64,000 nucleotides of DNA from Candidatus Omnitrophota bacterium (GCA_040753675.1 JBFMEB010000005.1:2303-66302); one strand, 5' to 3'. Positions 7,056 through 64,000 are shown, numbered from the stretch's first letter. The notes: generated by a model from the sequence alone, not told the origin. Numbers and translations: made by a program.

Positions 7056-8486
7056 ATGAAAAAATCCGTAAATAAACATCTTTATGCTTTAATCTTGGCT
7101 GGTGGCGTAGGAAGCCGTTTCTGGCCATTTAGTAGAGAGCTTGAGCCAAAGCAATTCCTAAATATTACTGGTCAGGGTTCTTTGATTCAAAATACTATTA
7201 GGCGTTTAGATAAAGTTGTGGCTCCTTCTAATATTTATATCATCTCTCGTAATACCTATTTTTACGAACTTAAAAAACAGATAAAAAAATTTAATATCCC
7301 TGAGTCTAATATATTATTAGAGCCCCAAGCCAAGAATACAGCTCCAGCCATTGGCTTGGGTAGCAAGTTTATAGCCAAACTTGATAAGGATGCAATAGTT
7401 ATTGTATTACCGTCAGATCATTATGTGCCTGACTACGATAATTTTAGAGCATGTATATTTAAGGCAGCACAGATTGCTTGTCTTAATTTTTTAGTTACTA
7501 TAGGCATAAGGCCTAAAAGGCAATCTAGCGGATATGGATATATAAAAGTAGATAGAACAAAGTTATTTAAGTTAGAAAACAGGAATATATTTTATAAGGT
7601 CGAGAAATTTTTTGAAAAACCAAGCTTAGAAAAAATAAAGAAACATTTTAAGGGCACAGATTATTTCTGGAATAGCGGGATATTTGTCTGGAAGGCTTCT
7701 GAATTTATGGATGAGCTAAAGGCGTATCTGCCGGATTTATATAAAAAGATAATGTCTATAAGAAACAATAACGATTTAGTCAGGGTCTGGAAGAGAGTTA
7801 CCCCCATTTCAGTTGACTATGGAATTTTAGAGCATTCAAAAAAGATAGCTCTTATTGCGGCTAATTTTTCTTGGGCAGATTTGGGTAGCTGGGATGCGTT
7901 AAATGAAGTATTAGCTAAAGATGTTAACGGCAATGTATTTCAAGCTGATTCTTTGGATTTGGGCAGCAAAGAAACCTGTGTTTTTAGTCGCGGCAATAGA
8001 CTTATCGCTACCATTGGCCTTGAGGGCTTGGTTATAGCTGATACTCCTGATGCGCTTTTGGTATGCGATAGGCATAAAAGCCAGGAAGTCAGAAAGCTAA
8101 TAGACGACCTGAAATCATTGAGACGAAAAGAGCATATAAGGCATTTATGCGAAAAACGGCCATGGGGTTCATATACAGTCTTGCAAGTTGGCGAAGGCTT
8201 TAAAATTAAGCTGGTTGAGATTGACCCTAAAAAGCGCTTAAGCCTTCAGAGCCATAGTAAGCGCGCTGAGCATTGGGTGGTAGTCCACGGATGCGCCAAG
8301 GTTACTTACTCAAATAAGACGAAAACTGTCAAAAGCAACCAGAGTATTTACATACCTAAAGGAACAAAACATCGCCTTGAAAATATTACCAACTTGCCTC
8401 TTAAAATTGTTGAGGTGCAGACAGGCAATTACTTAGAAGAGGATGATATTAAGAGATTTGAAGATGATTTTGACCGATTACTATAA
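7056..8486 (+). CDS. manC: Bifunctional mannose-1-phosphate guanylyltransferase / mannose-6-phosphate isomerase (type II PMI, cupin C-terminus)
   Basis: ALILAGGVGSRFWP nucleotidyltransferase N-terminus plus a C-terminal cupin (RPWGSYTVL...HWVVVHG). 476 aa. Confidence 0.88.
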   Translation: MKKSVNKHLYALILAGGVGSRFWPFSRELEPKQFLNITGQGSLIQNTIRRLDKVVAPSNIYIISRNTYFYELKKQIKKFNIPESNILLEPQAKNTAPAIGLGSKFIAKLDKDAIVIVLPSDHYVPDYDNFRACIFKAAQIACLNFLVTIGIRPKRQSSGYGYIKVDRTKLFKLENRNIFYKVEKFFEKPSLEKIKKHFKGTDYFWNSGIFVWKASEFMDELKAYLPDLYKKIMSIRNNNDLVRVWKRVTPISVDYGILEHSKKIALIAANFSWADLGSWDALNEVLAKDVNGNVFQADSLDLGSKETCVFSRGNRLIATIGLEGLVIADTPDALLVCDRHKSQEVRKLIDDLKSLRRKEHIRHLCEKRPWGSYTVLQVGEGFKIKLVEIDPKKRLSLQSHSKRAEHWVVVHGCAKVTYSNKTKTVKSNQSIYIPKGTKHRLENITNLPLKIVEVQTGNYLEEDDIKRFEDDFDRLL

Positions 8487-8531
8487 ATAGTCATATTTAT
8501 CCTAACTATAAGCGGGTCAGATAGTTTTGTT

Positions 8532-8558
8532 TTTGAAAAATACCCGCTATGTCTCACT
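8532..8558 (+). terminator. Possible weak hairpin after manC (agcgggt ... acccgct)
   Basis: 7-bp inverted repeat with a long loop and no adjacent T-run, so weak. Confidence 0.2.
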
Positions 8559-8579
8559 TTATACCTTTGGTTAATATGC

Positions 8580-8608
8580 TTGACAGGTTTAAGAGTTGCA
8601 AGTAAAAT
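8580..8608 (+). promoter_or_regulatory. Sigma70-like promoter candidate for the glycan-island regulator (TTGACA -17 bp- TAAAAT)
   Basis: TTGACA at 8580-8585, a 17-nt spacer, TAAAAT at 8603-8608, about 34 nt upstream of the ORF start at 8642. A TATAAT is also present at 8609-8614. Confidence 0.45.
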
Positions 8609-8641: not shown

Positions 8642-9259
8642 ATGCCAAATCCTCCATTAGAATTCTTAAAACCATCTACAGATTTAAGGAATCTTAAATT
8701 ATTGGAAGAAATCTCCAAAGAGGCTAAAATTTCGCAGCGAAAACTCGCCCGTCGCCTCGGAGTGGCCCTGGGAGTTACCAATGCCTGCTTAAAAAAGATG
8801 ATAAAAAAAGGCTTTATAAAAGTCAAAGGCATTAGTAATCGCCGAATTATCTATTATCTTTCGCCCAAAGGCTTTAGCGAAAAAACGCGTCTCACATATT
8901 ACTTCCTCCAACACACAATTTCTTATTATGTAAGTCTTAAAAAGAAGATTTATGAAAAGTTGCGATTGTTAGAGGCCGATAATGTCAAAAGGATTATTTA
9001 TTATGGTGCAGGTGAGGTTATGGAAGTCGCCTTTATTACTTTGCATGAAACTAACCTCGAACTTGTCGGAATAATAGATGATGATGGAGCCAAACATGGC
9101 AAAAAGAAGTTTGGATTTGTTATAAGTGCTCCAGCGATTATAAAGGAACTAAAACCCGATGCTATTTTTATTACCTCTTTAAAATTTAGAGATGAAATCT
9201 TGAATAATCTGGAAAATGACGAGTCGTTAAGGCAAATCAGACGATATTCATTAGATTAA
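8642..9259 (+). CDS. Winged-helix transcriptional regulator fused to a NeuD/PglD-N-terminal-like Rossmann (nucleotide-sugar/CoA-binding-like) domain
   Basis: N-terminal LEEISKEAKISQRKLARRLGVALGVTNACLKKMIKKGF is HTH-like. The C-terminal YYGAGEVMEVAFITL...VGIIDDDGAKHGKKKFGFVISAPAIIKELKPDAIFITS resembles the N-domain of NeuD/PglD/WbaP-type enzymes. Confidence 0.55.
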   Translation: MPNPPLEFLKPSTDLRNLKLLEEISKEAKISQRKLARRLGVALGVTNACLKKMIKKGFIKVKGISNRRIIYYLSPKGFSEKTRLTYYFLQHTISYYVSLKKKIYEKLRLLEADNVKRIIYYGAGEVMEVAFITLHETNLELVGIIDDDGAKHGKKKFGFVISAPAIIKELKPDAIFITSLKFRDEILNNLENDESLRQIRRYSLD

Positions 9260-9293: not shown

Positions 9294-10436
9294 ATGAAAA
9301 TTCCTTTAATTGATTTAAAAAAACAATATCGCAGCATTAAAGAAGAAGTAAATGAGGCAGTTCTGCAGGTTTTGGAAAGCGGCTCTTTTATCTTAGGCGA
9401 AAACGCAGAAGCACTAGAGGAAGAATTTGCCTACTTTTGTAAGGTAAAATACGCTGTAGGCGTTGCTTCTGGCACTGATGCTTTGGAGCTATCCTTGAGA
9501 GCTTTAGGCATAGGCCAAGGCGATAAAGTCATTACTACCCCCTTTACATTTATCGCTACCACAGAGGCCATCGGTCAGGTAGGCGCAACGCCAATATTTG
9601 TTGACATCAATCCAGAAACTTATAATATTGATCCTAAAAAAATAACCGAATATTTACTCGGAATTACGAATTTGCAACGTCAAGCCATAAAGGCTATAAT
9701 TCCAGTCCATCTTTATGGCCAACCCTGCGATATGGATAGACTAATTAAAATTGCTAAAGATTATAACTTAAGGATAGTCGAAGACTGTGCCCAAGCTGTT
9801 GGTAGCGAATATAAAGGGGAAAAAGTTGGCTCCTTTGGCGATACGGGTTGTTTTAGCTTTTTCCCAAGTAAAAACTTAGGTGCTTATGGCGACGGCGGCA
9901 TGATAGTTACCAATGACGAAAAAGTTGCCCAACGTTTAAGAATGCTACGTGTTCATGGAAGTAAAGATAAATATCACCACATTAGCGAAGGGCGTAACAG
10001 CCGCCTTGATGAGTTACAGGCAGCCATCTTAAGGGTAAAATTAAGACACTTAAATAACTGGAACGAATCTCGGCGAAAAAATGCAGCTGCCTACAATGAA
10101 AATCTAGGTAAAGAAAACCTTAATGGCAAAGTCATATTGCCAAGGGAACTCATGGGAGCAAAACATACTTACCATCTCTATGTAGTAAGAGTCAAAGATA
10201 GAGATAGACTACGTAATTTTTTAGAATCGAACGATGTCCAGACAGGCGTCCATTATCCTTTACCCCTTCATCTTCAAGAGGTTAATAAGAACTTGGGTTA
10301 TAATAGAGGCGATTTCCCAACAAGTGAACTAATTTCCGATGAAATTATCTCGCTTCCAATGTATCCAGAACTTGATAAAGTAGCAATTAGTTATATTTCA
10401 GATTTAATTTCCAATTTTCTTAAGGAGAGAAGATGA
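9294..10436 (+). CDS. DegT/DnrJ/EryC1 family PLP-dependent nucleotide-sugar aminotransferase (WbpE-like)
   Basis: 380 aa with a sugar-aminotransferase fold and a strong AGGAG-type RBS. Reading it as an aminotransferase depends on the DegT lysine, which I did not locate. Followed by a Gfo oxidoreductase and an acetyltransferase. Confidence 0.85.
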   Translation: MKIPLIDLKKQYRSIKEEVNEAVLQVLESGSFILGENAEALEEEFAYFCKVKYAVGVASGTDALELSLRALGIGQGDKVITTPFTFIATTEAIGQVGATPIFVDINPETYNIDPKKITEYLLGITNLQRQAIKAIIPVHLYGQPCDMDRLIKIAKDYNLRIVEDCAQAVGSEYKGEKVGSFGDTGCFSFFPSKNLGAYGDGGMIVTNDEKVAQRLRMLRVHGSKDKYHHISEGRNSRLDELQAAILRVKLRHLNNWNESRRKNAAAYNENLGKENLNGKVILPRELMGAKHTYHLYVVRVKDRDRLRNFLESNDVQTGVHYPLPLHLQEVNKNLGYNRGDFPTSELISDEIISLPMYPELDKVAISYISDLISNFLKERR

Positions 10437-11440
10437 TTACTTTAGCTCAAATTGGAGCAGGTGATTGGGGTCAGAACCACATCAGGATTTTTTCCGGTCT
10501 GAAGGATTGTTTCTTAAAGGTTTGCTGCGATAAAAGAAAAGATGTCTTGGAGAAGATAGGCACAATTTATAATAAGAGATTAAGATTAACTACAAATTTC
10601 CAAGACATTCTGCAAGATAATGAGATTGAAGCGGTGGTGATAGCAACTTCGGCTCCTACCCATGCCTTTCTGGCTATTGAAGCATTTTCAGCAGGCAAGC
10701 ATGTTTTTATAGAGAAGCCACTGGCCTTAACTTTAGAGGATGGAATAAAGATTCAAGAAGCAGCACAAAGAAATAAACGCATCCTTATGGTTGGCCATCT
10801 GTTACTTTATCACCCGGCAGTTTTAAAACTAAAAAGCTATATTGAAAGCGGCCAGTTAGGTAAAATTCTCTATCTCTATTCTACGCGTGTTAATTTAGGC
10901 AGGATAAGAGAAGAGGAAAGCGCTCTTTGGAGTCTGACCTCTCACGATATCTCTGTGGCCTTATTTCTATTAGATGATATCCCAGAGGAGGTCAGCGCTA
11001 AGGGTGACAGTTACTTAAGGAAGGGGATTGAGGACGTTGTTTTTATGACTCTTAGATTTAAGAATGATATCTTGACTCATATACACGCCAGTTGGCTTGA
11101 TCCGCACAAGATGAGAAAGTTTACTGTGGTAGGTTCTAAGAAGATGGCAGTTTTTGATGATATGCAACCCTCTGAGAAGATACGTATTTATGATAAAGGC
11201 GTTGACCGCAAAGTAGATTATAAGACTTACGCGGAATATTTAGCCCTGCGCGATGGAGATATTAACATTCCTCGCATTGAAATGAAAGAGCCTTTGCAAA
11301 TTGAATGTCAGCATTTTCTGGATTGTATTATGAATAATCATAAACCAATAACCAATGGAGAGAATGGCCTAGAAGTTTTGAAAGTTCTGTCTGCTGCCCA
11401 AAAATCATTAGAGGCAAATGGTGACTCCGTTAAAATTTAA
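10433..11440 (+). CDS. Gfo/Idh/MocA family NAD-dependent nucleotide-sugar oxidoreductase (WbpB/GnnA-like)
   Basis: [17 protein letters not shown]ossmann N-terminus, [11 protein letters not shown] and [11 protein letters not shown] motifs. Confidence 0.85.
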
Positions 11441-12038
11441 TAGAAGGAATAAAACAAGAAATTATTTTGTACATAAGTCTGCATATATAGATGAAGGGGC
11501 TGTTATTGGAAACGATACTAAGATATGGCACTTCAGCCATATTATGAGTGGCGCAAGAATAGGAAAAAAATGTAAACTCGGACAGAATGTTTATATAGGG
11601 CCTAATGTAAAAATAGGCAATAATGTAAAAATACAGAATAATGTGTCGGTTTATCCTGGTGTTACGCTGGAAGACGATGTCTTCTGTGGCCCTTCCACAG
11701 TTTTTACTAATATTATTAATCCGCGTTCAGCTATTAATCGAAACAACGAAGGTTTTTTTTTAAAAACCCTGATTAAAAAAGGCGCAAGTATCGGAGCAAA
11801 TGTGACTATAGTCTGTGGCCATATCATTGGTGAATATGCGTTTATAGGAGCGGGGGCAACGGTTACCAAAGATGTTTTACCATATTCATTAGTTTATGGC
11901 AATCCTGCACGCCATAAAGGCTGGATATGCGAATGCGGCGAAAAATTAGGATTTAATGGAGCAAAAGCTACCTGCCAAGAGTGTAAAAAGCAATATAGAA
12001 AGATAAAGGATAAAGTTAAAAGGATAAAAAAAGCGTAA
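11418..12038 (+). CDS. Hexapeptide-repeat (LbH) sugar N-acetyltransferase, WbpD-like, with C-terminal CxxC...CxxC zinc ribbon
   Basis: Repeating [LIV]GxxxxI hexapeptides ([32 protein letters not shown]) and a C-terminal CECGEK...CQEC. Confidence 0.8.
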
Positions 12039-12079: not shown

Positions 12080-13054
12080 GTGGATTGGTCTAAAAAAGTA
12101 ATTTTGTTAACTGGTGGGACAGGTTCATTTGGGCAGAAATTTACTGAAGTCATGCTTAAAAAATATAGACCCAAAGTTATAAGAATTTTTAGCCGCGATG
12201 AATTGAAACAGTGGGATATGGAGAAAAAGTTTAATAACCATAGACAGTTAAGATTTTTCATTGGCGATGTTCGGGATAAAAATAGATTAGAGCGTGCAAT
12301 GGATGGAACTAATATTGTAGTACACGCTGCTGCCCTAAAGCAAGTACCTTTATGTGAATACAATCCATTTGAGGCAGTGAAAACAAATATTCTTGGTGCT
12401 CAAAATGTTATCGAAGCGGCTATTGATCATAACATAGAAAAAGTTATGGCGATAAGCACAGATAAAGCAGTAAATCCTGTGAATTTATATGGTGCAAGCA
12501 AGATGTGCATGGAAAAACTATTTATTGCTGCAAATGCTTATGTGGGATCTAAAAGAAAGACAAAGATGTCCTCTGCCCGTTATGGGAATGTAATAGGCAG
12601 TAGAGGCAGTATCATTCCATTGCTTAAGGAGCAAAGGTTAAGCGGAACAATTACGATTACGGATAGAAGGATGACACGTTTCTGGATTACGCTTGAACAT
12701 GGCGTAGAATTTGTAATTCAATGCATAGAAAAAATGCATGGAGGCGAGGTATTTGTGCCAAAGGTACCTAGCATGAGGATTATGGATTTAGCAAAGACAA
12801 TCGCTCCAAGATGTAAAATAAAATATATTGGAATACGTCCAGGTGAAAAAATTCATGAATGTCTGCTGACTGAGGATGAGTCGGGGCATGCATTGGAATA
12901 TAAGGATTTATTTGTAATCATACCTGATCATCCATGGTGGTCTTTTGATAATTGGAAGGATGGAAAGAAGCTTTCTCAGGGATTCAAATATACAAGTGAT
13001 TCAAACCCTCACTGGTTAAACGAAAAGGAATTACTCAAGATGATAGAGGAGTAA
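12080..13054 (+). CDS. pseB: UDP-N-acetylglucosamine 4,6-dehydratase (inverting), PseB/FlaA1-type short-chain dehydratase
   Basis: VILLTGGTGSFGQKF, 324 aa, Polysacc_synt_2-like, with catalytic Y..K (YGASKMCMEK). Followed by a pseC-like gene. Confidence 0.82.
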   Translation: MDWSKKVILLTGGTGSFGQKFTEVMLKKYRPKVIRIFSRDELKQWDMEKKFNNHRQLRFFIGDVRDKNRLERAMDGTNIVVHAAALKQVPLCEYNPFEAVKTNILGAQNVIEAAIDHNIEKVMAISTDKAVNPVNLYGASKMCMEKLFIAANAYVGSKRKTKMSSARYGNVIGSRGSIIPLLKEQRLSGTITITDRRMTRFWITLEHGVEFVIQCIEKMHGGEVFVPKVPSMRIMDLAKTIAPRCKIKYIGIRPGEKIHECLLTEDESGHALEYKDLFVIIPDHPWWSFDNWKDGKKLSQGFKYTSDSNPHWLNEKELLKMIEE

Positions 13055-13055: not shown

Positions 13056-14207
13056 GTGAGATTTATACCATATGGTCATCATACAATAGGTAGAGATGAT
13101 ATACGTGCCGTAGTAGATGTATTGAATTCTGATTGGATTACTCAAGGTTCAAAGATAGGAGAATTTGAAGATGCTGTCTGTAAGTATACGGGTGCAAAAT
13201 ATGCGGTAGCAGTAAATTCAGGGACAGCAGCTCTTCATGCAGCCAGTTTTGCTGCCGGTATAAAATGCAAAGATGAAGTTATTACATCTCCAGTAACTTT
13301 TCTGGCTACAGCAAATTGTATAGTTTACCAGAAAGCCAAACCTGTATTTGCAGATATCAATGCCAATAGTTTAAATATAAACCCTGAAGAGATAGAGAGA
13401 AAAATAACTCGTAGGACAAAAGCTATAATCGCCGTTCATTTCGCAGGTTTTCCTTGCAATATGGATAAGATTTTAAGTATTGCAAAGAAGAACCGGCTTA
13501 TTGTTATTGAAGATGCATCACATGCTTTGGGTGCGCAATATAAAGGCAGAAAGATTGGGTCAATTGGCAATATGACTACCTTTAGCTTTCACCCTTTGAA
13601 GTCTATTACTACAGGTGAAGGCGGAATGATATTAACTAACAATAAGAAATTATATACTCGTTTACTCTGTTTTAGAAATCATGGGATAGTAAAGAATAAA
13701 AAGAAGTTGCGCAAGATCGGTCCTTGGTATTATGAGATGCAGAATTTAGGTTATAATTACCGGATTACTGATTTTCAATGCGCATTAGGTATAAACCAAC
13801 TGGCAAAATTAGATAAATTTATTAGAAGGCGCGAAGAGATTGCCATTCGTTATAATGAATTATTTAAAGATATAGATAATTTTATAGAATTTCCTCAAGA
13901 AGTTCCAAATTATATTAAGCATGCCTGGCATCTTTATATTATTCAGTTAAGATTGGATAGGTTAAAAATAAGCAGGAAAAAATTTTTCAATATTTTGCGT
14001 AATAAGAATATTGGAGTTCAGGTGCATTATATCCCGATACACTTACAACCTTTTTATAAAAGAAATTTTGGTTATAAGAAGGGAGATTTTCCTCAGGCAG
14101 AGAGATTTTATGAAAGAGCAATAACTTTACCCATCTTTCCAGCATTGGCAAATAAAGATATAGACAGGATTGCTAAAACAGTTAAGAGTTTGGTGAAAAA
14201 TAGATGA
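13056..14207 (+). CDS. pseC: UDP-4-amino-4,6-dideoxy-N-acetyl-beta-L-altrosamine transaminase (PseC-like DegT aminotransferase)
   Basis: MRFIPYGHHTIGRDDIRAVVDVLNSDWITQG is the characteristic PseC N-terminus. The PLP lysine context is SFHPLKSI. Confidence 0.82.
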   Translation: MRFIPYGHHTIGRDDIRAVVDVLNSDWITQGSKIGEFEDAVCKYTGAKYAVAVNSGTAALHAASFAAGIKCKDEVITSPVTFLATANCIVYQKAKPVFADINANSLNINPEEIERKITRRTKAIIAVHFAGFPCNMDKILSIAKKNRLIVIEDASHALGAQYKGRKIGSIGNMTTFSFHPLKSITTGEGGMILTNNKKLYTRLLCFRNHGIVKNKKKLRKIGPWYYEMQNLGYNYRITDFQCALGINQLAKLDKFIRRREEIAIRYNELFKDIDNFIEFPQEVPNYIKHAWHLYIIQLRLDRLKISRKKFFNILRNKNIGVQVHYIPIHLQPFYKRNFGYKKGDFPQAERFYERAITLPIFPALANKDIDRIAKTVKSLVKNR

Positions 14208-24961: not shown

Positions 24962-24972
24962 GAGGTAATGTT

Positions 24973-41224: not shown

Positions 41225-41257
41225 AAATCACCTATAGCAAGCATTTTTAAAAATACG

Positions 41258-41281: not shown

Positions 41282-41327
41282 TGTTATTGTCTACATAAAA
41301 TTTTTTTAAATTTAATAAAGTGTAGTT

Positions 41328-47587: not shown

Positions 47588-47825
47588 TATTAAAAAAAGA
47601 CTACAGGATATATTTCGCTATGTGTTTGAGAAGAAAAATCTCAAAATTTTTGATGAGATGACAGCTAATGATATAGAGGAGTGGGATTCCCTTATGCACA
47701 TTAATTTGATCATTGCTATCGAGAAAGAATTTTCTATTAAATTTAAACTGGGGGAACTCGTAGAGTTGGGAAATGTTGGCGATACTATACAACTAATTGA
47801 GAAAAAGCTAATGAAACAAAATTAA
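47580..47825 (+). CDS. Acyl carrier protein (DSL phosphopantetheinylation motif)
   Basis: 81 aa with EEWDSLMHINLIIAIEKEF. Overlaps the FkbH stop by 8 nt, suggesting translational coupling. Confidence 0.75.
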   Translation: MSDIKKRLQDIFRYVFEKKNLKIFDEMTANDIEEWDSLMHINLIIAIEKEFSIKFKLGELVELGNVGDTIQLIEKKLMKQN

Positions 47826-57193: not shown

Positions 57194-58930
57194 ATGAAGA
57201 GAACATTTAATTATAATATAATAGTTTGTATTCTTTTTATTGGTTTCTTATTTGCCTTTCCGCGAATTTTCTTAGGAGAGGATTCTTATGTAACTATTCA
57301 TGATAATTTAGATATAGGTTCTATTTGGTTTATAAGGCATATTGAAAAAAGTAATATTTTTAATCCCCAGTCTTTGCTTGATAATACTATGAATGGTCTA
57401 CCGCGGCCGTTTCTAACCACCGGTTCTGCTGTGATGTTGGCCCTTTTTCTGTTATTCAAACCGTTTACCGCCTATGTAATAAATGAGCTATTGGTGCATT
57501 TGCTTGCATTCATCGGGATGTATTTATTGCTTAAGAGGCATGTTTTAAAATCGAAGGATGAGGATTTCATAGCCTTTGGTGTATCAGTTTGTTTTGCGGC
57601 ATTGCCATTTTATTCGCTTTTTGGCTTATCCGTTGCCGGCCAGCCGTTATTACTTTATGCATTTTTAAATTTAATAAATAATAAAAAGCACATTTTAGAT
57701 TTCATGATAATTTTTATTTTTCCTTTTTATGCGCCTTTATATTATGCCGGATTTGCTATTCTTATAGCGCTAGGAATTTTATTTATCTTCTATTACATAA
57801 GTGAGAGAAAGGCTAATAAACTATTCTTATCTGGGCTAATACTTTTCTCAATTAGCTATGTGTTTGTCGAATTCAATTTTATTAAAATGGCTATCTTCGA
57901 TAATAATTTGGCTATTCATAGGATGGATTGGAATCCTCTTTATTTAGCTAGAAACTATAAAGAGGCGATGAAGCTAGGATTCAAGAATTTTTTATTCGGA
58001 GATTATAATGCACCGAGTAAACATACTCCTATTATATTAGTCTCTTTTTTGAGTATCCTAACGGTATTTCTCGCTAACAGAAAAGCTCAATTAGGAAATA
58101 CTGCGAAATCAATCTTTATTTTATTGCTTATAGCTTTCAGTATATCGCTATTCCATGGTCTTTACCATTGGGAAGGATTAGTTCTCCTAAAGGAGAAAAT
58201 CGACCTTTTGAGGGTAACACAGTTTAATAGGTTCTTTTACCTAGAGACTATTCTATGGTACATTGTTTTTGCATTATCTCTTTTTTCATTATTGCATTTG
58301 GAACATGGAAAATCTTTTGTAAGAATTTTGATTATATCTCAGTTAATTTTTATTTTTACCAGCAAATTTGAATCGAAAAATGAATTGAGTATTAATTATA
58401 AGATCATTTTTGAAAGAGCCTTCGGTAAAGAGAAAAACAGGCTTACCTATGGGAAGTTTTTTTCAGAAACTTTATTTTCTGATATTGATGAGTACCTTGG
58501 CCTACCTAAGAAGACATACCGCCTGGTCAGTATTGGTATCCATCCGAGTATCCTTCAGTATAACGGTTTTTATACTCTGGACAGTTATCAGAATGTTTAT
58601 CCTCTGATATATAAACATCGTTTCAGAGAAATCATTGCAAAGGAGTTAGATAAGAGCACTCAATTGAAAGATTACTTCGATTATTGGGGTAATAGATGCT
58701 ATATATTTGTAGCCGAGCTTGAAGATGAAGGGTTTACAATCACGAAAGAGAGGAATATAAAAATCCATAATCTTGAATTAAATACCAACGCCTTAAAGAA
58801 ACTAGGTGGAAGGTTTATACTTTCAGCGGTACAGATTCTAAACGCCAAGGATAACAACTTGGCGCTATTAAAGATATTTGAACGCGATGATTCTCCTTGG
58901 CAGATTTATTTGTATAAAGTGGATAGTTAG
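57194..58930 (+). CDS. Large integral membrane protein of unknown function (about 10 TM N-domain plus about 180-aa soluble C-domain). Possible polymerase or GT-C-like.
   Basis: 578 aa, strongly hydrophobic for the first about 390 aa. No recognisable catalytic motif. Confidence 0.5.
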   Translation: MKRTFNYNIIVCILFIGFLFAFPRIFLGEDSYVTIHDNLDIGSIWFIRHIEKSNIFNPQSLLDNTMNGLPRPFLTTGSAVMLALFLLFKPFTAYVINELLVHLLAFIGMYLLLKRHVLKSKDEDFIAFGVSVCFAALPFYSLFGLSVAGQPLLLYAFLNLINNKKHILDFMIIFIFPFYAPLYYAGFAILIALGILFIFYYISERKANKLFLSGLILFSISYVFVEFNFIKMAIFDNNLAIHRMDWNPLYLARNYKEAMKLGFKNFLFGDYNAPSKHTPIILVSFLSILTVFLANRKAQLGNTAKSIFILLLIAFSISLFHGLYHWEGLVLLKEKIDLLRVTQFNRFFYLETILWYIVFALSLFSLLHLEHGKSFVRILIISQLIFIFTSKFESKNELSINYKIIFERAFGKEKNRLTYGKFFSETLFSDIDEYLGLPKKTYRLVSIGIHPSILQYNGFYTLDSYQNVYPLIYKHRFREIIAKELDKSTQLKDYFDYWGNRCYIFVAELEDEGFTITKERNIKIHNLELNTNALKKLGGRFILSAVQILNAKDNNLALLKIFERDDSPWQIYLYKVDS

Positions 58931-58948
58931 GTTGATATATAACTGTTA

Positions 58949-59908
58949 ATGGCGGAAAAGTTTCAAATGAAAGAATACTTACTTAAAATAATAGGTATAA
59001 TTATTTTAGTTTTTATTTTAAAGGATGTTGATATCCGTTTAGTGGCATTGAATATCAAAGATTGTAATCTATTTTTATTAATAGCGGCAGTTATTTTAGA
59101 GACGAGCTGTATTATACCGAAGGCAATAAAATGGCAGGTAATTTTAAAGGCATTAAAAATAAAAGCCAGTTTTTTTGATAGTTTGAGGGCCTATTGGTCG
59201 GGATTGTTTTTTGGTGCGATAACTCCGGGTAAAGTCGGAGATATATCAAGGGTATATTTTTTGAGTAAACATAACCCTTTTATCGTTAGGTCTATATTTT
59301 CTGTTGTGTTGGACAGACTATCTGATATTGTAGTTCTGCTATTAATAGGTTTGGCTGTTAGTTTTTTCTACTTGAATGAGATAAAGTTTTTAAATTTCGC
59401 TATTCTTTTGACTTTAGCTGGCCTTTGCTTATCTGCCACATTGATGTTTCTCAAAAGAGATTTTTTTTATAGTCTATTTATGAAATTGTTATATAAGTTT
59501 ATACCTAAAGAAAGATTATGGCTAAAAGTAAATCCTAATTATGAAATTTTAAAAGATATAAAACCCATAAATTATATTTTAGTTTTTATGTATCTATTGC
59601 TAGCGTGGGCAATATATTTTTTAGCCTACTGGGTTCTAAGCAAGGCTTTATTTATAGAAATGCCTTTCTTATATTTGGTAGGAACAGTTACAGTAGCTAC
59701 TATAGTATCTTTGATTCCTATATCTATCAGTGGCTTGGGGACGCGAGACGCAGCAGTTGTATTTATGTTATCCAAGATAGGGATATCTAAAACTTCTGCC
59801 CTTTCTTTCTCATTGATGATGTTTGCTATAGGAATGTTTATTGTAAGCTTCGGATTTATATTTTATTTCCAAGGGCAGGGCAGGAGGGCCTTAAGAGTAG
59901 ATGGATAA
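58949..59908 (+). CDS. Flippase-like domain protein (lysylphosphatidylglycerol-synthase TM-region / UPF0104 family)
   Basis: 319 aa with about 8 TM helices. GAITPGKVGDISRVYF motif typical of this family, which is often paired with GT2 polyprenyl-phosphate sugar synthases. Confidence 0.6.
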   Translation: MAEKFQMKEYLLKIIGIIILVFILKDVDIRLVALNIKDCNLFLLIAAVILETSCIIPKAIKWQVILKALKIKASFFDSLRAYWSGLFFGAITPGKVGDISRVYFLSKHNPFIVRSIFSVVLDRLSDIVVLLLIGLAVSFFYLNEIKFLNFAILLTLAGLCLSATLMFLKRDFFYSLFMKLLYKFIPKERLWLKVNPNYEILKDIKPINYILVFMYLLLAWAIYFLAYWVLSKALFIEMPFLYLVGTVTVATIVSLIPISISGLGTRDAAVVFMLSKIGISKTSALSFSLMMFAIGMFIVSFGFIFYFQGQGRRALRVDG

Positions 59909-60983
59909 AACGAATATTAGCAACGACGTATTGGAAAATTTATCTTGGTGGACTTTATTAGACCCGGATTTGATTCGTGAGGATTTGATTAAGAGCCAAT
60001 GGATAAAGCGTATAGACGGTTTGCTCGACACGAGGGTTATATCTCCATTTGAGGCAGTATGCAGGAGGATTCTACATAAAATTCTTTTGTACTCTTCTGA
60101 TACGAATAGGTATCGGATTACGGATTCGATTAAAAAGTTGCGTCAGTTAGTGAGAAAGGAACTGATAGAGATTCCCCATTGTACTTTTGTAGAGATTTAT
60201 TCATACCTGGTTAAAAAATTTAATGCTACACCTTTAACTTGGAATGGGCATAAAGCCTGTGTTTGCTTAACTCATGATGTGGATTCCAAGGAAGGGTATA
60301 GATTTATAGAAAATATTTTAGATTTGGAGAAACGTTTTAAAGCTAGAAGTACATATAATTTCCTTACTAATTGGGGATACAGAATAGATTCACATTTAGT
60401 TAAAAAAATTTTGGAGGCTAAGTTTGAAGTAGGATTACACGGATGGACACATGATATCGCTTTGGGATGCCGAGATAAAAAAAGAATAAAGAGGGAACTT
60501 GGTCTAGCAATGAAAGAATTAGGAGTGCGAGTTTCTGGTTTTCGCGCTCCTGCTTTTGCTATAAGTAAAGCCTTACTTGAAGTATTAGTAGAGCTAGGAA
60601 TAAAGTACGATAGTTCAATGAAAACTCTCAGTTGCTATGGCCAGGCAGTAGAATCGCCTTATCCTTATAGATATCCAGGGGTAGATATCTGGGAAATCCC
60701 TTTAACTATACAGGATGACAGGATATTCAGGGATTTACATCTGAGCTGCGAGGAAGGCCTGGGTGTAATAAAAGAATTGGTCGAAAGGATTATTAAGGTT
60801 GGGGGCGTTGTCGTGATTAATACACATCCCAGACTGATCAAGTCAAGATATATATTTTACGAAGATTTCCTTGCCTGGTTATCTGAACAACCGGATATTT
60901 TGGTATGTCCAACAATAGAAGTCATAGATATATGTGAGCAGAGAAGAGAGGAATTTAATAGATGTCTTTCGATAAAAAAGTAA
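59901..60983 (+). CDS. Polysaccharide deacetylase-like (CE4/NodB-like) protein
   Basis: CVCLTHDVDSKEGY (DxD/H region) and GLHGWTHD (His motif). 360 aa. Confidence 0.62.
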   Translation: MDKTNISNDVLENLSWWTLLDPDLIREDLIKSQWIKRIDGLLDTRVISPFEAVCRRILHKILLYSSDTNRYRITDSIKKLRQLVRKELIEIPHCTFVEIYSYLVKKFNATPLTWNGHKACVCLTHDVDSKEGYRFIENILDLEKRFKARSTYNFLTNWGYRIDSHLVKKILEAKFEVGLHGWTHDIALGCRDKKRIKRELGLAMKELGVRVSGFRAPAFAISKALLEVLVELGIKYDSSMKTLSCYGQAVESPYPYRYPGVDIWEIPLTIQDDRIFRDLHLSCEEGLGVIKELVERIIKVGGVVVINTHPRLIKSRYIFYEDFLAWLSEQPDILVCPTIEVIDICEQRREEFNRCLSIKK

Positions 60984-61927
60984 TATTGGTAACTGGCGGT
61001 GCAGGATTCATAGGGAGTAATTTAGTTGAGGTAATTTTAAAGGATAAAGTCAAGAAGCTCATTGTTCTCGATAATTTTGTAGCCGGAAAAAAAGAAAATA
61101 TAGAGAACTTTCAGAATGATAGGCGTTTTGAATTAATTGCTGGAGATATAAGAGACTATGGCCTTGTTAAAAAATTAGTCCAAAAAAGCGACCTGATTTT
61201 TAATCTGGCTGCCTCAAAGTTGGTAGTCTCTTTGGAGCATCCAAGAGTCGATTTAGAGACTAATATCTTAGGTACATTTAATATATTAGAGGCAGCAAGG
61301 AAAAACCCTGTGGTTAGAATAGTACATGCTTCAACTGGCTCGGTGCTTGGTAGTTCGCATAGCCCTATGGCTGAGGAGCATTGCCCTAACCCTACTACCT
61401 TATATGGAATTTCTAAGTTGGCGGCAGAAAAATATTGCTTATTTTATGTTAAGGAATTCGGCGTTAAGGTCTCTGTGGTTCGTTATTTCCATGTTTTCGG
61501 CCCGAGGCAAGATTATACTGGAAGTTCGGGTGTAGTGAATATATTCCTGTCTCGCGTATTGACAGGTAAATCTCCAGTTATTTTTGGTACAGGAGAACAA
61601 ATTAGATGCTTGACTTATGTCGAGGATGATATAGAGGCTACGCTAATGCTGGCAAATTCAGATGGGGCTATCGGTGAAATTTATAATGTCGCTTCTTTAA
61701 CTCGAATTTCAGTAAAACAACTGGCAGAAATAATTATCAGTAAATTCGGCCCTAAAGGAATGAAACCTGAATATGGAGCTTCCCGTCAAGGAGAAAATCT
61801 AAGGCCAATCCCAGATACGACCAAGATTGAACGCTTGGGTTTTAAAGCCAAGGTTGAGTTTGAAGAGGGCTTAGAGAAAACAAAAGCGTGGATTCAAGGA
61901 GATTTAAATAAAAGAAATGTCATTTGA
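60962..61927 (+). CDS. NAD-dependent epimerase/dehydratase (extended SDR; UDP-glucuronate decarboxylase / dTDP-glucose 4,6-dehydratase-like)
   Basis: VILVTGGAGFIGSNLVE, YGISKLAAE (YxxxK). 321 aa. Confidence 0.85.
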   Translation: MSFDKKVILVTGGAGFIGSNLVEVILKDKVKKLIVLDNFVAGKKENIENFQNDRRFELIAGDIRDYGLVKKLVQKSDLIFNLAASKLVVSLEHPRVDLETNILGTFNILEAARKNPVVRIVHASTGSVLGSSHSPMAEEHCPNPTTLYGISKLAAEKYCLFYVKEFGVKVSVVRYFHVFGPRQDYTGSSGVVNIFLSRVLTGKSPVIFGTGEQIRCLTYVEDDIEATLMLANSDGAIGEIYNVASLTRISVKQLAEIIISKFGPKGMKPEYGASRQGENLRPIPDTTKIERLGFKAKVEFEEGLEKTKAWIQGDLNKRNVI

Positions 61928-62648
61928 AAATCCCCAATCTAAAATTCTAGTTTTGATTCCTGTTTTTAACGAAGACGGCAAGATCCTAAAAGTCGTGAAA
62001 AAGATTCCTAGAGACTCAGTTGATCAGATAGTAGTCATAAATGACGGTTCGACCGATTCTACTCCATTTGACGCTATAGGAGAAGGAGTTAAGGTTCTCA
62101 ACCATGATATCCGAAGAGGCATAGGGGCTGCTATTAGGACGGGGATAGAGTACGCTATTGCCAATAACTACGATATAATCGTCATATTAGCAGGAAATGA
62201 TAAAGACGACCCTACTCAGATCAATAGGTTGGTCGAACCTATAGTTAAAGATAACTTTGATTACGTCCAGGGTTCAAGGTATATAAAAGGTGGCATTAGT
62301 GGAAAAATGCCATTACATAGGCTGATATTTACAAAGGGCTATTCTTTCTTAATCCGTCTTTGTACAAATTGCATAATAACAGACGGCACAAATGGTTTTC
62401 GCGCTTACCGCAGGGTCATATTTGATGATAAGAGGATAAATATCTGGCAGGATTGGCTTAGTCAGTCCTTAGAATATTATCTTTCGATCAAGGTATTGAA
62501 GCTTGGTTATAAAATCAAAGAAGTGCCTGTTACTAAGATATATCCTACAGGTGTATCTTACAAAGCATACACTAAAGTAAAGCCTTTTTATGGTTGGATA
62601 GAAAGGCTTAAGCCTATTATTTATTTAACGTTAGGAATAAAAAAATGA
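61917..62648 (+). CDS. GT2 polyprenyl-phosphate sugar synthase (DPM1/ArnC-like)
   Basis: ILVLIPVFNE, NDGSTDST, LAGNDKDDP. 243 aa. Confidence 0.8.
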   Translation: MSFENPQSKILVLIPVFNEDGKILKVVKKIPRDSVDQIVVINDGSTDSTPFDAIGEGVKVLNHDIRRGIGAAIRTGIEYAIANNYDIIVILAGNDKDDPTQINRLVEPIVKDNFDYVQGSRYIKGGISGKMPLHRLIFTKGYSFLIRLCTNCIITDGTNGFRAYRRVIFDDKRINIWQDWLSQSLEYYLSIKVLKLGYKIKEVPVTKIYPTGVSYKAYTKVKPFYGWIERLKPIIYLTLGIKK

Positions 62649-63769
62649 TTAAAATTATAAGTGTAGTCGGAGCAAGGCCTCAGTTTATCAAGGCGGCGAT
62701 GATTGCGCAGGCTATTAGGGCCTTTAACCAAGACGCTGATTCTAGGCAAAGATTCTATCATTTATTGGTGCATACCGGTCAGCATTATGATTCCAGAATG
62801 TCAAAAATATTTTTCGACCAATTAGATATCCCACGTCAAGCTTACAATCTAAAGATAGGTTCATGCGGGCACGCTGTCCAGACAGGGAAGATGCTCATAC
62901 GACTTGAAAAAGTCTTGCTAAAAGAAAGGCCAAGATTACTGCTGACTTACGGTGATACGAATTCCGCATTAGCTGGTGCCTTGACGGCAGTAAAGTTGTC
63001 TATCCCTATAGCACATGTAGAGGCCGGCTTGCGTAGTTTTAATCGTTCTATGCCAGAGGAAGTTAACAGAATCCTGATTGACCACATATCACATTTATGC
63101 TTTTGCCCTACGCAGAGTGCAGTAAAAAACTTGAAAATCGAAGGAATAGTAGAAGGGGTTTACCATACTGGAGACGTAATGATAGATGCATTAAAATACT
63201 ATGCCAAAATCGCAATCAAAAAATCAACCATCTTGGATAAATTAAACATTAATGCACGAAAATATTACCTCGCGACAATACATCGTCCTGCTAATACAGA
63301 CAATAAAGGTAATTTAAGAGATATAATTAATGCCTTTTGTTCTTTGGACTTGCCGGTAATTTTTCCTGTGCATCCAAGGACGAAGAGGAAACTTTTTAAC
63401 ATAGGATTTCCTTTGAACAAATCTAATATTGTAATAATTGAACCAGTAAGTTATTTTGATATGCTTACTTTAGAAAAATACGCTAAGACTGTTTTTACAG
63501 ATTCCGGGGGAGTTCAAAAGGAGGCATATTTCTTCGAGGTCCCATGCATTACTCTGAGGACAGAGACGGAGTGGATTGAGACAGTAACTGAGGGATGGAA
63601 TGTTATCGCAGGTGCAGATAAAACAAAGATAATTCGAAGTGCGCTTACTTTTTCATCGCCTTTTAGAGGAAAAAACATATTTGGGCGAGGTAGGGCAGCA
63701 GAGAAAATAACTAGAATTATAAGTAGATTTTTAAGCCAACACAGAGATTCAATATGTTGCGAAAGTTAA
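62645..63769 (+). CDS. wecB: UDP-N-acetylglucosamine 2-epimerase (WecB/MnaA family; a hydrolysing NeuC-type cannot be excluded)
   Basis: MIKIISVVGARPQFIKAAM, HTGQHYD, GDTNSAL, HVEAGLRS. Canonical. Confidence 0.85.
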   Translation: MIKIISVVGARPQFIKAAMIAQAIRAFNQDADSRQRFYHLLVHTGQHYDSRMSKIFFDQLDIPRQAYNLKIGSCGHAVQTGKMLIRLEKVLLKERPRLLLTYGDTNSALAGALTAVKLSIPIAHVEAGLRSFNRSMPEEVNRILIDHISHLCFCPTQSAVKNLKIEGIVEGVYHTGDVMIDALKYYAKIAIKKSTILDKLNINARKYYLATIHRPANTDNKGNLRDIINAFCSLDLPVIFPVHPRTKRKLFNIGFPLNKSNIVIIEPVSYFDMLTLEKYAKTVFTDSGGVQKEAYFFEVPCITLRTETEWIETVTEGWNVIAGADKTKIIRSALTFSSPFRGKNIFGRGRAAEKITRIISRFLSQHRDSICCES

Positions 63770-64000
63770 ATAAACAAGGCTATATATTAATCCTGATTTT
63801 AATGCTAAATCTATTCCTAAATGTATATGGCATTAATTGGGGGCTTCCTAATAGGTGGAATGTTGATGAACAAGTAGCAACCTCTTTGCGTATGCTGCAT
63901 GAAAAAAGCATAGTTACTTCTGATGATTTTGGTCACCCAACTTTTTATTATTTTTTCTTAATATTGGTGTTATCACTTTTTATAATTTTTCTTAAGTTCA
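63754..64000 (+). CDS. 3'-truncated membrane protein, probably a GT-C (ArnT/PMT-like) glycosyltransferase
   Basis: The ATG at 63754 overlaps the wecB stop. MLRKLNKQGYILILILMLNLFLNVYGINWGLPNRWNVDEQVATS has a hydrophobic helix and then a DE-containing loop like the gene at 48622. The ORF runs off the window, so it is absent from the ORF track. Confidence 0.5.
   Translation, partial: MLRKLNKQGYILILILMLNLFLNVYGINWGLPNRWNVDEQVATSLRMLHEKSIVTSDDFGHPTFYYFFLILVLSLFIIFLKF

Follow-up and report, generated by a model that had tools for sequence, protein, structure and literature searches.

Does a run of more than fifty consecutive glycan genes specify one heavily decorated sugar, or a surface glycan assembled from several? 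The question is raised by a 64,000-nt stretch of the genome of an uncultured Candidatus Omnitrophota bacterium (GCA_040753675.1 JBFMEB010000005.1:2303-66302; the whole stretch is referred to as the window), in which the initial annotation had seen a glycan super-cluster built around a complete pseudaminic acid (Pse) pathway. We report that the region from position 7056 to the window edge is probably a composite cell-surface glycan locus, in which a variant Pse-type core, with PseB and PseC at equivalog level and a nonulosonic acid synthase that falls outside the PseI clade, is combined with several other modules.

Open reading frames (ORFs) and the gaps between them were listed for the window and each ORF was scanned against NCBIfam and Pfam. 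The window holds 60 substantial ORFs, every one on the + strand; the minus-strand ORFs are all ≤164 amino acids (aa) and nested inside + strand genes having strong family matches. Between 7056 and 63769 there are 53 consecutive + strand ORFs (52 if the frameshifted pair 23445-24566 / 24563-24961 is counted as one gene) with 99% coding sequence; 26 of the junctions are overlaps, 11 of them by 4 nt, and gaps longer than 60 nt occur just three times (155, 63 and 103 nt). From 63754 a 54th ORF, for a membrane protein, runs past the window end. The closely packed run of about 50 genes from manC to the window edge that had been described first is thus borne out, and the locus, with ManC as its functional left edge 12 nt past trpC, is at least 57 kb long and reaches the window edge. 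Its one-strandedness is real but is not a trait of the locus as such, since the seven upstream housekeeping genes (rho (3' part), prfA, prmC, murA, trpG, trpD and trpC) also lie on the + strand and the GC skew is positive in all 2-kb bins of the window; the strand bias is probably genomic, that of a leading strand.

The family scans also agree with the gene classes named in the initial annotation. There are seven radical S-adenosylmethionine (SAM) enzymes, all with CxxxCxxC and six with Pfam B12-binding and Radical_SAM domains over gathering score, four Gfo/Idh/MocA oxidoreductases (starting at 10433, 14204, 24958 and 50200), two carrier proteins with intact DS(F/L) serine motifs (26101 and 47580), two SAM methyltransferases (17264 and 35333), glycosyltransferases of the GT2 (four), GT4 (two) and GT-C (two, plus the cut tail ORF) types, one Wzx and one LPG_synthase_TM flippase-like protein, and two CE4 deacetylases.

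A probable Pse-type core and its synthase clade

The core reading concerns the following genes (model scores are given with their cut-offs).

12080-13054, + strand: PseB, inverting UDP-GlcNAc 4,6-dehydratase (TIGR03589 488.9, above 407.75)
13056-14207, + strand: PseC, UDP-4-amino-4,6-dideoxy-beta-L-AltNAc transaminase (TIGR03588 494.4, above 423.5)
14204-15190, + strand: GFO-B, Gfo/Idh/MocA oxidoreductase within the variant pathway block (family scan)
15187-17244, + strand: cytidylyltransferase fused to a class-III aminotransferase (CTP_transf_3 116 bits, Aminotran_3 173.7 bits)
28214-29152, + strand: PseG-like UDP-sugar hydrolase, GT-B, GT28-like (TIGR03590 127.3, below 153.55, E 8.5e-37)
29139-30170, + strand: NeuB-family nonulosonic acid synthase (NeuB_NnaB, TIGR03569, 333.0, below 399.65; PseI, TIGR03586, 304.9, below 340.25)
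30146-30613, + strand: PseH-like GNAT N-acetyltransferase (TIGR03585 50.9, below 93.1)

The PseB and PseC calls are unambiguous, and among the six Pse functions only these two reach the NCBIfam equivalog cut-offs. The remaining four (PseF, PseG, PseH and PseI) fall under theirs, the PseF model TIGR03584 scoring 26.6 on the cytidylyltransferase domain (cut-off 205.7), where KdsB-like models score higher (95.6), and the names pseF, pseG, pseH and pseI express a family-level and not an equivalog-level resemblance. When pseB, pseC, pseF, pseG(H) and pseI of a Klebsiella plasmid (L083) were compared with the window, each had its best match inside 12-30.6 kb, at identities of 54, 43, 24, 24.5/25 and 40%, respectively (PseG over full length), and tblastn detected one NeuB-family gene, which includes a SAF domain, and one cytidylyltransferase in the window. 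Of the complete Pse pathway first proposed, there thus remain the PseB and PseC equivalogs and a best homologue for each of the six functions within 12-30.6 kb, while four of the assignments do not hold at equivalog level.

The cytidylyltransferase constitutes the N-terminal 258 residues of the 685-aa fusion at 15187 and is a candidate CMP-nonulosonate synthetase; the C-terminal half is class-III and GSAM-like (best PDB match GSAM, 218 bits). PDB searches with the aminotransferase domain and with GFO-B returned only GSAM- and inositol-dehydrogenase-type relatives, which did not narrow the substrate. In the Legionella pneumophila serogroup 6 O-antigen locus a GNAT, PseG, a "glutamate-1-semialdehyde aminomutase" and a cytidylyltransferase are similarly adjacent (PMC3694923).

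The synthase was placed in a neighbour-joining tree with few references (PDB 8H2C, four plasmid pseI, two annotated neuB, SpsE, Leptospira and Neisseria NeuB, and BpsE). It belongs to a separate clade with 98-100% bootstrap support, and the PseI references form a clade of their own (99-100%). Phylogeny of this gene had been put forward as the check on the pathway; its outcome is divided, since the synthase lies outside the PseI clade and the PseG and PseH calls are weakened, but the latter are not reassigned and the context is still Pse-type. No Leg- or Neu-specific enzyme (legionaminic and neuraminic acid, respectively) reached its cut-off in the profile scan of the window: LegB scored at best 166.9 vs 475, LegC 270.7 vs 420 (on the PseC gene) and NeuC 62.3 vs 235.9, on a gene that scores 301 vs 210.15 as WecB. 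A Pse-type pathway from the L-altro 4-amino sugar is therefore best supported, and the best reading of the gene content is that such a pathway would proceed via a divergent synthase and cytidylyltransferase, with an added oxidation/transamination.

Comparison with the canonical CMP-Pse pathway (Campylobacter, Helicobacter, Acinetobacter K loci and Klebsiella L083) shows where the variant departs. The window shares the PseB, PseC start and likewise has a GNAT, a PseG-like GT-B hydrolase, a NeuB-family SAF synthase and a CTP_transf_3 domain. Unlike the canonical loci it has four of six functions under cut-off, a synthase of a separate clade, a KdsB-leaning cytidylyltransferase fused to an aminotransferase, a Gfo/Idh/MocA gene after PseC, and approximately 11 kb of tailoring genes between PseC and PseG.

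Relatives of the synthase were collected with a degenerate-pattern scan of species-representative genomes, which gave 316 loci; the best 80 were kept and all window proteins were searched against them, with counts made on the 35 loci having at least 8 kb upstream and at least 4 kb downstream. A PseB homologue is present beside the synthase clade in 27/35 of these, PseC in 29/35, the cytidylyltransferase in 27/35, the class-III aminotransferase in 15/35 and GFO-B in 8/35. As PseB and PseC occur in about 80% of the 35 loci, a Pse-type nonulosonic acid stays the best reading. The order PseB, PseC, GFO-B, cytidylyltransferase, aminotransferase, PseG-like, synthase is kept in the Thermoplasmata loci L056, L057 and L060 at 47-66% identity, with partial versions in ANME-1, Planctomycetales, Synergistales and WOR-1. 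GFO-B orthologues (36-50% identity) are located directly 3' of PseC in Thermoplasmata, ANME-1, Atribacterota and Rokubacteria loci. In most related loci the cytidylyltransferase and aminotransferase are encoded side by side as individual genes; the fusion recurs in L072 (Nitrospiraceae). Moreover, the PseG-like gene has a syntenic homologue 5' of the synthase in 24/82 loci, and the PseH-like GNAT has a 53%-identical homologue directly 3' of the synthase in L001.

Among the best 80 of the 316 loci, bacterial carriers belong to Synergistota, Omnitrophota, WOR-1, Rokubacteria, Actinomycetota, Planctomycetota and Dehalococcoidia, and archaeal carriers to Thermoplasmata, ANME-1, Aenigmarchaeota, Hodarchaeota and Methanofastidiosa. 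The clade has cultured carriers (Thermanaerovibrio acidaminovorans, Dethiosulfovibrio peptidovorans and Geomonas propionica); in the Thermanaerovibrio locus the cluster is limited to the synthase, a GNAT and one more gene, and the variant block is missing. The synthases of Bacteria and archaeal lineages are 53-58% identical (L027, L030, L032, L035-L041, L056-L058, L060 and L065), and a clade common to both domains implies inter-domain transfer of the pathway. Two NeuB-family synthases per locus were observed in L005, L010, L017, L029, L040 and L092. The second synthase of L005, L010, L017 and L029 belongs to another non-canonical clade (71% bootstrap), which includes the cytidylyltransferase-fused synthase of L092; L092 also carries a canonical PseI, and the second copy of L040 (39% identity) branches beside the window clade.

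Modules around the core

Downstream of the synthase lies the gene for a 624-aa protein, which is listed here with the radical SAM enzymes.

22205-23464, + strand: radical SAM enzyme without B12 domain (Radical_SAM 54 bits; CNLRCTYC at residue 103)
23445-24961, + strand: B12-binding radical SAM 1, frameshift-split (Pfam B12-binding, Radical_SAM)
33481-35355, + strand: candidate nonulosonate glycosyltransferase, 624 aa, GT-B (NF046086 96.4, below 200; TIGR04396 87.7, below 125)
35936-37420, + strand: B12-binding radical SAM 2 (Pfam)
39812-41224, + strand: B12-binding radical SAM 3 (Pfam; nearest structure AprD4, 6FD2, 99.8 bits)
51271-52686, 52693-54114 and 54145-55572, + strand: B12-binding radical SAM 4-6, in tandem (Pfam)

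The 624-aa gene begins 3.3 kb downstream of the synthase. The C-terminal approximately 240 residues of its product match the BFO_1060 model (NF046086) at profile positions 100-363 of 365, the N-terminal 380 residues have no family match, and the AlphaFold model (predicted local distance difference test, pLDDT, 81) has a GT-B fold (Foldseek E 1e-14). The protein also matches Capsule_synth, and relatives match Glyphos_transf; together with the BFO_1060 and TIGR04396 matches and the context this suggests a CMP-ulosonate transferase. The NCBI product name for 33481-35355 is UDP-N-acetylglucosamine 2-epimerase, probably a misannotation. Tannerella BFO_1060 orthologues have been shown genetically to add a Pse or Leg derivative to the O-glycan, and like Tanf_01245 / TFUB4_00887 / BFO_1060 of Tannerella forsythia the window gene comes after nonulosonate biosynthesis genes and beside a methyltransferase (PMC5420450). 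It differs from these in length (624 aa vs 442-445 aa), in its score (96.4 vs a cut-off of 200) and in having an unrelated 380-aa N-terminal half.

The 624-aa family is rare (9 matches, members of 615-624 aa). Its homologue is positioned 3' of the synthase and GNAT in L001 and directly 3' of a cytidylyltransferase-synthase fusion in L093-L095; one to three B12 radical SAM genes come next in each of the four loci. In L093-L095 the neighbourhood further includes SAM methyltransferases and a small Dpm-like GT2, and Wzx, LPG_synthase_TM or WecB lie close by; the cassette as a whole mirrors 29-41 kb and parts of 47-64 kb in the window. The case for radical SAM enzymes acting on a nonulosonate-containing glycan draws its strongest support from this recurrence. 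The fused synthases (CTP_transf_3 + NeuB + SAF, 534-540 aa; L093:8387-9991, L094:1708-3312 and L095:1522-3144) form a separate clade.

All six B12 radical SAM enzymes stay under every NCBIfam equivalog cut-off. Enzymes 4-6 are 33-36% identical to each other and 33-37% identical to the radical SAM genes flanking the homologues in L093-L095. With the class-B radical SAM enzymes of aminoglycoside pathways, such as the C3'-deoxygenase AprD4, they share B12-binding and Radical_SAM domains and CxxxCxxC, but the window enzymes lie in a surface-glycan locus and comprise six divergent paralogues (24-43% identity). GenK-type C-methylases are further class-B radical SAM enzymes that tailor sugars in aminoglycoside pathways, and by analogy both C-methylation and deoxygenation are plausible for the window enzymes. 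The literature searched contained no paper with both nonulosonic acid and radical SAM.

Two ideas about these genes were discarded. Recent duplication was rejected given that the paralogues are only 24-43% identical, and phosphonate tailoring, prompted by P-methyltransferase-type radical SAM matches, was rejected as neither phosphoenolpyruvate (PEP) mutase nor another phosphonate gene was detected in the window. Direct reading of the sequence shows that a frameshift within a T8 run (approximately 24556-24563) divides B12 radical SAM 1 into two overlapping ORFs, of which the second takes up the HpnJ profile at positions 345-396. The interruption may reflect an error of assembly, mark a pseudogene, or belong to a slippage-prone, phase-variable tract as in Campylobacter glycosylation genes.

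A second set of genes, in part interspersed with the core, concerns carrier-bound acyl units and sugar N-acylation.

17264-17938, + strand: SAM-dependent methyltransferase (weak class-I methyltransferase matches)
18491-19513, + strand: ApbA/PanE-type ketoreductase (Pfam ApbA, ApbA_C; NCBIfam under cut-off)
19531-21111, + strand: AMP-forming acyl ligase, acyl-CoA / acyl-carrier-protein synthetase family (NF004837 377, below 476)
26101-26367, + strand: acyl carrier protein 1 (carrier-protein models E ~1e-5; HIDSFG serine motif)
26364-28217, + strand: AAC(3)-like N-acyltransferase fused to DUF4910/DUF2172 (Antibiotic_NAT 109, DUF4910 68.5, DUF2172 53 bits)
30649-32013, + strand: DUF4910/DUF2172/HTH_47 protein, 454 aa, CA_C2195 / Cj1295 type (DUF4910 214 bits; PDB 3K9T 217.7 bits)
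35333-35932, + strand: SAM-dependent methyltransferase (Pfam Methyltransf_23)
41328-41945, + strand: GNAT acetyltransferase (Pfam Acetyltransf_1)
43952-44548, + strand: GNAT acyltransferase 2 (PseH model 47.1, below 93.1)
44545-44961, + strand: MaoC-like (R)-hydratase/dehydratase (MaoC_dehydratas 60.8 bits)
44958-45713, + strand: FabG-like ketoreductase of the short-chain dehydrogenase/reductase (SDR) family (family scan)
45713-47587, + strand: FkbH-family protein (TIGR01686 282.9, above 146.65; FkbH_N; PDB 3SLR 230.7 bits)
47580-47825, + strand: acyl carrier protein 2 (PP-binding 21.6, above gathering 20.8; EWDSLM serine motif)

Linkage or fusion of DUF4910 with an aminosugar N-acetyltransferase, a carrier protein and an HAD/FkbH-type protein is found in the window. 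The AAC(3)-DUF4910 fusion lies directly 3' of the first carrier protein (26101), the same pair being separate adjacent genes in L002, and the second carrier protein lies directly 3' of FkbH (45.7-47.8 kb). The protein at 30649 matches DUF4910 (214 bits), DUF2172 (95 bits) and HTH_47 (22 bits, under the gathering score of 27.1) and aligns with PDB 3K9T across residues 38-436. Homologues of GNAT acyltransferase 2 are present near the synthase in 18 of the 35 loci, and the MaoC and GNAT pair also in the nonulosonic acid cluster of L092. FkbH enzymes load a glyceryl unit onto a carrier protein; with an FkbH above cut-off and a carrier protein next to it, an N-glyceroyl, possibly O-methylated, nonulosonic acid is a reasonable inference for the product. 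The AMP-ligase, ApbA-type reductase, MaoC, FabG and further GNATs suggest a second acyl substituent.

Precedents for this set are known. In surface-carbohydrate loci, members of the CA_C2195 family (3K9T) are found together with aminosugar N-acetyltransferases, a carrier protein and an HAD-type protein, as linked genes or at times as fusions, with SAM methylases and glycosyltransferases as further partners, and a sugar-modifying rather than a peptidase role has been proposed for it (PMC4000134). In C. jejuni NCTC 11168 genetic evidence indicates that the aminopeptidase-like Cj1295 is needed for 5-N-(2,3-di-O-methylglyceroyl) pseudaminic acid, and it was proposed to strip the N5-acetyl so that a new acyl can be added (PMC3068675); the same locus encodes the N-acetyltransferase Cj1296/7 and the FkbH-domain gene cj1302 (PMC3068675, PMC7099621). 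Pse5Am7Gra, which terminates the S-layer O-glycan of Tannerella forsythia, shows that N-glyceroyl-type sugars exist, its N-acyl genes being unidentified (PMC5378307). Matched by family description, the gene set of C. jejuni Cj1295-Cj1304 and C. acetobutylicum CA_C2195-CA_C2199 recurs in the window, i.e. the DUF4910/DUF2172/HTH_47 protein, aminosugar N-acetyltransferase, carrier, FkbH/HAD, GNAT and SAM methyltransferases. The N-acetyltransferase of the window is fused to a second DUF4910. Unlike in these loci, the module is split between 26-32 kb and 41-48 kb and is accompanied by the AMP-ligase, MaoC, FabG, AroQ and ApbA-type reductase, and no flagellar or Maf (DUF115) genes are present in the window.

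The distal part, from 47.8 kb to the window end, consists of the following genes in addition to radical SAM 4-6.

47874-48611, + strand: small GT2, ArnC/GtrB-like (family scan)
48622-50139, + strand: GT-C membrane glycosyltransferase, PMT_2 / ArnT-like (PMT_2 32.8, above 26.1; 9 hydrophobic segments)
50200-51231, + strand: GFO-D, UDP-GlcNAc 3-dehydrogenase-like (NF040723 196, below 450)
55586-56338, + strand: small GT2 (family scan)
56301-57191, + strand: SDR epimerase/reductase (family scan)
57194-58930, + strand: DUF6044 polytopic membrane protein, probably a GT-C-like transferase (DUF6044 564 bits; 11 hydrophobic segments)
58949-59908, + strand: LPG_synthase_TM / TIGR00374 flippase-like protein (TIGR00374 64.8, above 43.2; Pfam 154 bits)
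59901-60983, + strand: CE4 polysaccharide deacetylase (Polysacc_deac_1 36.1, above 23.1)
60962-61927, + strand: SDR, 4,6-dehydratase-like, RmlB/LegB-like (under cut-offs)
61917-62648, + strand: small GT2, Dpm1/PpgS-like (NF058614 85.9, below 370; Pfam GT2)
62645-63769, + strand: WecB, non-hydrolysing UDP-GlcNAc 2-epimerase (TIGR00236 301, above 210.15)
63754-64000, + strand: 5' part of a membrane protein gene, GT-C-like N-terminus (translation; no family match for the 78-aa fragment)

With its three small GT2, TIGR00374 flippase-like protein, CE4, PMT_2 GT-C, DUF6044 and GT-C-like tail ORF, among which a UDP-GlcNAc-3-dehydrogenase-like oxidoreductase, three radical SAM enzymes, two SDR and WecB are embedded, this part looks like an Arn/Gtr-type polyprenyl-phosphate-sugar branch. 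The clustering of small GT2 (Pfam scores 62-90 bits), flippase-like, CE4 and GT-C genes is shared with the Arn (L-Ara4N), Gtr and Francisella/Mycobacterium GalN systems. Equivalog identity with ArnC, ArnT, ArnD, PpgS or GtrB was not found (ArnC 52.7 vs 529, PpgS 85.9 vs 370): unlike in those systems the GT2 proteins are far under the equivalog cut-offs, and three B12 radical SAM genes and a Gfo/Idh/MocA gene are embedded. DUF6044 homologues adjoin GT2 genes, and in the metagenomic locus L092 one sits within a Pse-type cluster; a scan of genome contigs with DUF6044 gave no relative.

One pathway or several

Family membership and synteny were computed, and all module chemistry is taken from the established roles of the families. 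On this basis the composite locus would work as follows. ManC would supply GDP-mannose, and WecB and several SDR further sugar nucleotides, while a DegT / Gfo-Idh-MocA / hexapeptide-acetyltransferase trio would give a 2,3-diacetamido-2,3-dideoxy-hexose nucleotide, as WbpB/E/D or GnnA/B do. PseB and PseC would convert UDP-GlcNAc to UDP-4-amino-4,6-dideoxy-beta-L-AltNAc, the PseH-like GNAT would acylate N4 and the PseG-like hydrolase remove UDP, after which the clade-specific NeuB-family synthase would join the hexose with PEP and the divergent CTP_transf_3 domain form the CMP-sugar; GFO-B and the class-III aminotransferase may add an extra oxidation/transamination on the sugar. FkbH and the AMP-ligase would load glyceryl or other hydroxy-acyl units on the two carrier proteins, where MaoC, FabG and the SAM methyltransferases would tailor them, and the DUF4910 proteins may remove N-acetyl so that the AAC(3)-like and GNAT acyltransferases add a new acyl. 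The 624-aa GT-B protein would transfer the CMP-nonulosonate, the GT4/GT2 enzymes extend the glycan and Wzx flip it. In a periplasmic branch, three small GT2 would make polyprenyl-phosphate sugars, which CE4 may modify and the LPG_synthase_TM-type protein flip, and the GT-C enzymes (PMT_2, DUF6044 and the cut last ORF) would pass the lipid-linked sugars to the final acceptor. Finally, the six class-B (cobalamin) radical SAM enzymes and the one other could C-methylate and/or deoxygenate sugars.

Several results weigh against this account. With four enzymes under cut-off and the synthase outside PseI, the sugar could be a stereoisomer or derivative and not pseudaminic acid itself; the deep nodes of the neighbour-joining tree, with its few references, have only 23-30% bootstrap support. 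It is ambiguous which synthase takes the PseB/PseC product in the two-synthase loci, and most accessory genes are not conserved near the synthase elsewhere. For the 624-aa protein the top structural matches in the fold search are UDP-GlcNAc 2-epimerases (also GT-B), followed by GT4, so that the GT-B fold does not separate a transferase from a hydrolase/epimerase role. The link to Cj1295-Cj1304 is one of shared Pfam/PIRSF family descriptions and not of direct sequence comparison. Promoter and terminator scans of the window gave counts not above those of shuffles. No initiating phosphoglycosyltransferase, Wzy, Wzz or ligase was seen in the window; the acceptor may be lipopolysaccharide, capsule or protein, and the modules need not form a unit.

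That the whole of the at least 57 kb would instead be one pathway round a complete canonical Pse5Ac7Ac-type route, the extra genes decorating a single nonulosonic acid, we consider unlikely. The genes are uninterrupted, co-directional and tightly packed, as one pathway would have them, but the housekeeping genes upstream are co-oriented too and the strand is no evidence for a single pathway. The small Dpm-like GT2, LPG_synthase_TM, WecB and B12 radical SAM genes do occur beside the transferase and synthase in L093-L095, and DUF6044 within the Pse-type cluster of L092, yet the accessory genes are mostly missing from the other loci of the clade. Four functions under cut-off and a synthase outside the PseI clade do not fit a canonical route. 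Moreover, the locus encodes the diacetamido-hexose trio, ManC, WecB, four SDR, six GT2/GT4, two flippase types and at least two GT-C, a range of enzymes that points to several different sugars and a lipid-linked periplasmic branch. The proposal that the extra content decorates one nonulosonic acid is therefore not upheld: there are several modules, most with described analogues, and several sugar-nucleotide routes, and in place of a single decoration scheme at least two export and transfer logics are encoded.

The composite reading assigns a Pse-type product to the core, and a legionaminic, neuraminic or other NeuB/LegI-type product is, in our judgement, improbable. The NeuB/NnaB model outscores the PseI model on the synthase (333.0 vs 304.9), B. 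subtilis SpsE leads the PDB matches (201.7 bits, vs 193.7 for the solved pseudaminic acid synthase), JGI names relatives 'N-acetylneuraminate / N,N'-diacetyllegionaminate synthase', and the clade lies outside PseI. However, identity to annotated PseI (37-40%) is marginally above that to NeuB (35-37%), a PseG-like gene lies directly 5' of the synthase, and PseB and PseC equivalogs are found 15 kb upstream in the same block and recur in the well-flanked clade loci (27/35 and 29/35), whereas LegB and a hydrolysing NeuC/LegG-type epimerase are missing from the window and LegC stays under its cut-off.

A diffusible aminoglycoside- or nucleoside-like secondary metabolite as the product of the locus or its central part is scarcely credible, for although AprD4-like radical SAM enzymes, a class-III aminotransferase related to aminoglycoside C-6' aminotransferases, Gfo/Idh/MocA, an AAC(3)-family acetyltransferase, FkbH, carrier proteins and an AMP-ligase would suit such a product, genes for 2-deoxy-scyllo-inosose synthase, polyketide synthases and nonribosomal peptide synthetases are lacking, Wzx, polyprenyl-phosphate GT2, GT-C, CE4, nonulosonate synthase and cytidylyltransferase mark envelope glycan assembly, and the DUF4910/AAC(3)/carrier/FkbH set is documented in flagellin and surface-glycan loci (PMC4000134, PMC3068675).

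The composite surface-glycan locus is not a new kind of system, and most of its modules have precedents. Large co-directional glycan loci, environmental nonulosonic acids and N-acyl-diversified pseudaminic acids are all known. NeuB-family clades beyond the textbook three have likewise been described (PMC8208679). What is uncharacterised is the synthase/cytidylyltransferase clade, the Gfo/Idh/MocA and class-III aminotransferase step, and the 615-624 aa family with its radical SAM association. In the literature searched no paper ties the locus or the phylum to a solved glycan. Tentatively, and with more doubt than confidence, we suggest that the conserved PseB-to-synthase block, which occurs in uncultured anaerobic Bacteria and Archaea, may make an undescribed nonulosonic acid, for example a pseudaminic-series sugar with an extra amino group or altered stereochemistry, and that the B12 radical SAM enzymes recurring beside the 615-624 aa family may C-methylate or deoxygenate the sugar or glycan; if true, this would be the first link of class-B radical SAM chemistry with nonulosonic-acid glycobiology.

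Nonulosonic acids shape the recognition of microbial surfaces by hosts, phages and neighbouring cells, and the Tannerella work describes the enzymes behind their diversity as poorly known. The present data give three leads. One is a clade of synthases that falls outside PseI, LegI and NeuB and accompanies PseB and PseC in bacterial and archaeal genomes alike; the second is the conserved oxidoreductase/aminotransferase step, which has no assigned chemistry, and the third is the repeated pairing of a rare transferase family with B12 radical SAM enzymes. The locus also unites the DUF4910 / AAC(3) / carrier / FkbH set, the biochemistry of which still awaits solution in Campylobacter, and it points to an elaborate surface chemistry in Omnitrophota.

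Further genes, composition and regulation

The other genes of the locus are the following.

7056-8486, + strand: ManC, mannose-1-phosphate guanylyltransferase/mannose-6-phosphate isomerase (TIGR01479 476.7, cut-off 372.95)
8642-9259, + strand: MarR/winged helix-turn-helix (wHTH) regulator, extracellular polysaccharide (EPS)-associated-like (TIGR04176 73.1, under 88; Pfam HTH_24, MarR)
9294-10436, + strand: DegT-A, DegT-family sugar aminotransferase of the WbpE/GnnB-like trio (PseC model 272, below 423.5)
10433-11440, + strand: GFO-A, Gfo/Idh/MocA, UDP-GlcNAc 3-dehydrogenase-like (NF040723 197, below 450)
11418-12038, + strand: hexapeptide-repeat sugar N-acetyltransferase, NeuD/PglB/VioB-like (TIGR03570 82.6, below 160.8)
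17981-18427, + strand: AroQ, type II 3-dehydroquinate dehydratase (TIGR01088 187.8, above 169.85)
21101-22147, + strand: GT2 glycosyltransferase (family scan)
24958-26085, + strand: GFO-C, divergent Gfo/Idh/MocA (family scan)
31995-33455, + strand: Wzx-type (MOP family) flippase (Polysacc_synt 73 bits; 10 hydrophobic segments)
37414-38670, + strand: GT4 glycosyltransferase (family scan)
38667-39797, + strand: GT4 glycosyltransferase (Glyco_trans_1_4; 31% identity to a GT4 of L001)
41946-42956, + strand: CE4 polysaccharide deacetylase (family scan)
42935-43933, + strand: SDR epimerase/dehydratase, UDP-xylose synthase / ArnA C-terminal domain-like (family scan)

DegT-A and the true PseC, its paralogue, are 36% identical. 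GFO-A and GFO-D, 39 kb apart, share 46% identity, far more than with the other two paralogues, and may serve two 3-keto or 3-amino sugar branches.

The GC content, approximately 0.40 over the housekeeping genes, falls to 0.31-0.38 within the locus. The AroQ gene is a composition outlier, with a GC of 0.443 and a GC at third codon positions (GC3) of 0.537 vs approximately 0.33-0.38 in the genes around it. It may be a housekeeping gene carried along in the locus, may have been acquired recently, or may provide a shikimate-derived acyl precursor together with the ApbA-type reductase and the AMP-ligase. An AMP-binding gene is also located downstream of the synthase in L002.

Rfam and tRNA scans of the window gave no tRNA and no Rfam family, including no cobalamin riboswitch. 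The best sigma-70-like match (11/12) is at 8580-8608, inside the 155-nt gap before the MarR/wHTH gene. Related loci (L002, L017 and several from Rokubacteria) likewise have MarR-like genes upstream of PseB, which suggests a conserved regulator heading such clusters. Finally, a perfect 12-bp inverted repeat, ACGTAACTTATG...CATAAGTTATGT, is present at 41255-41284, within the 103 nt that separate radical SAM 3 from the GNAT gene at 41328; this predicted hairpin could act as a weak terminator or as an operator at a sub-operon boundary.

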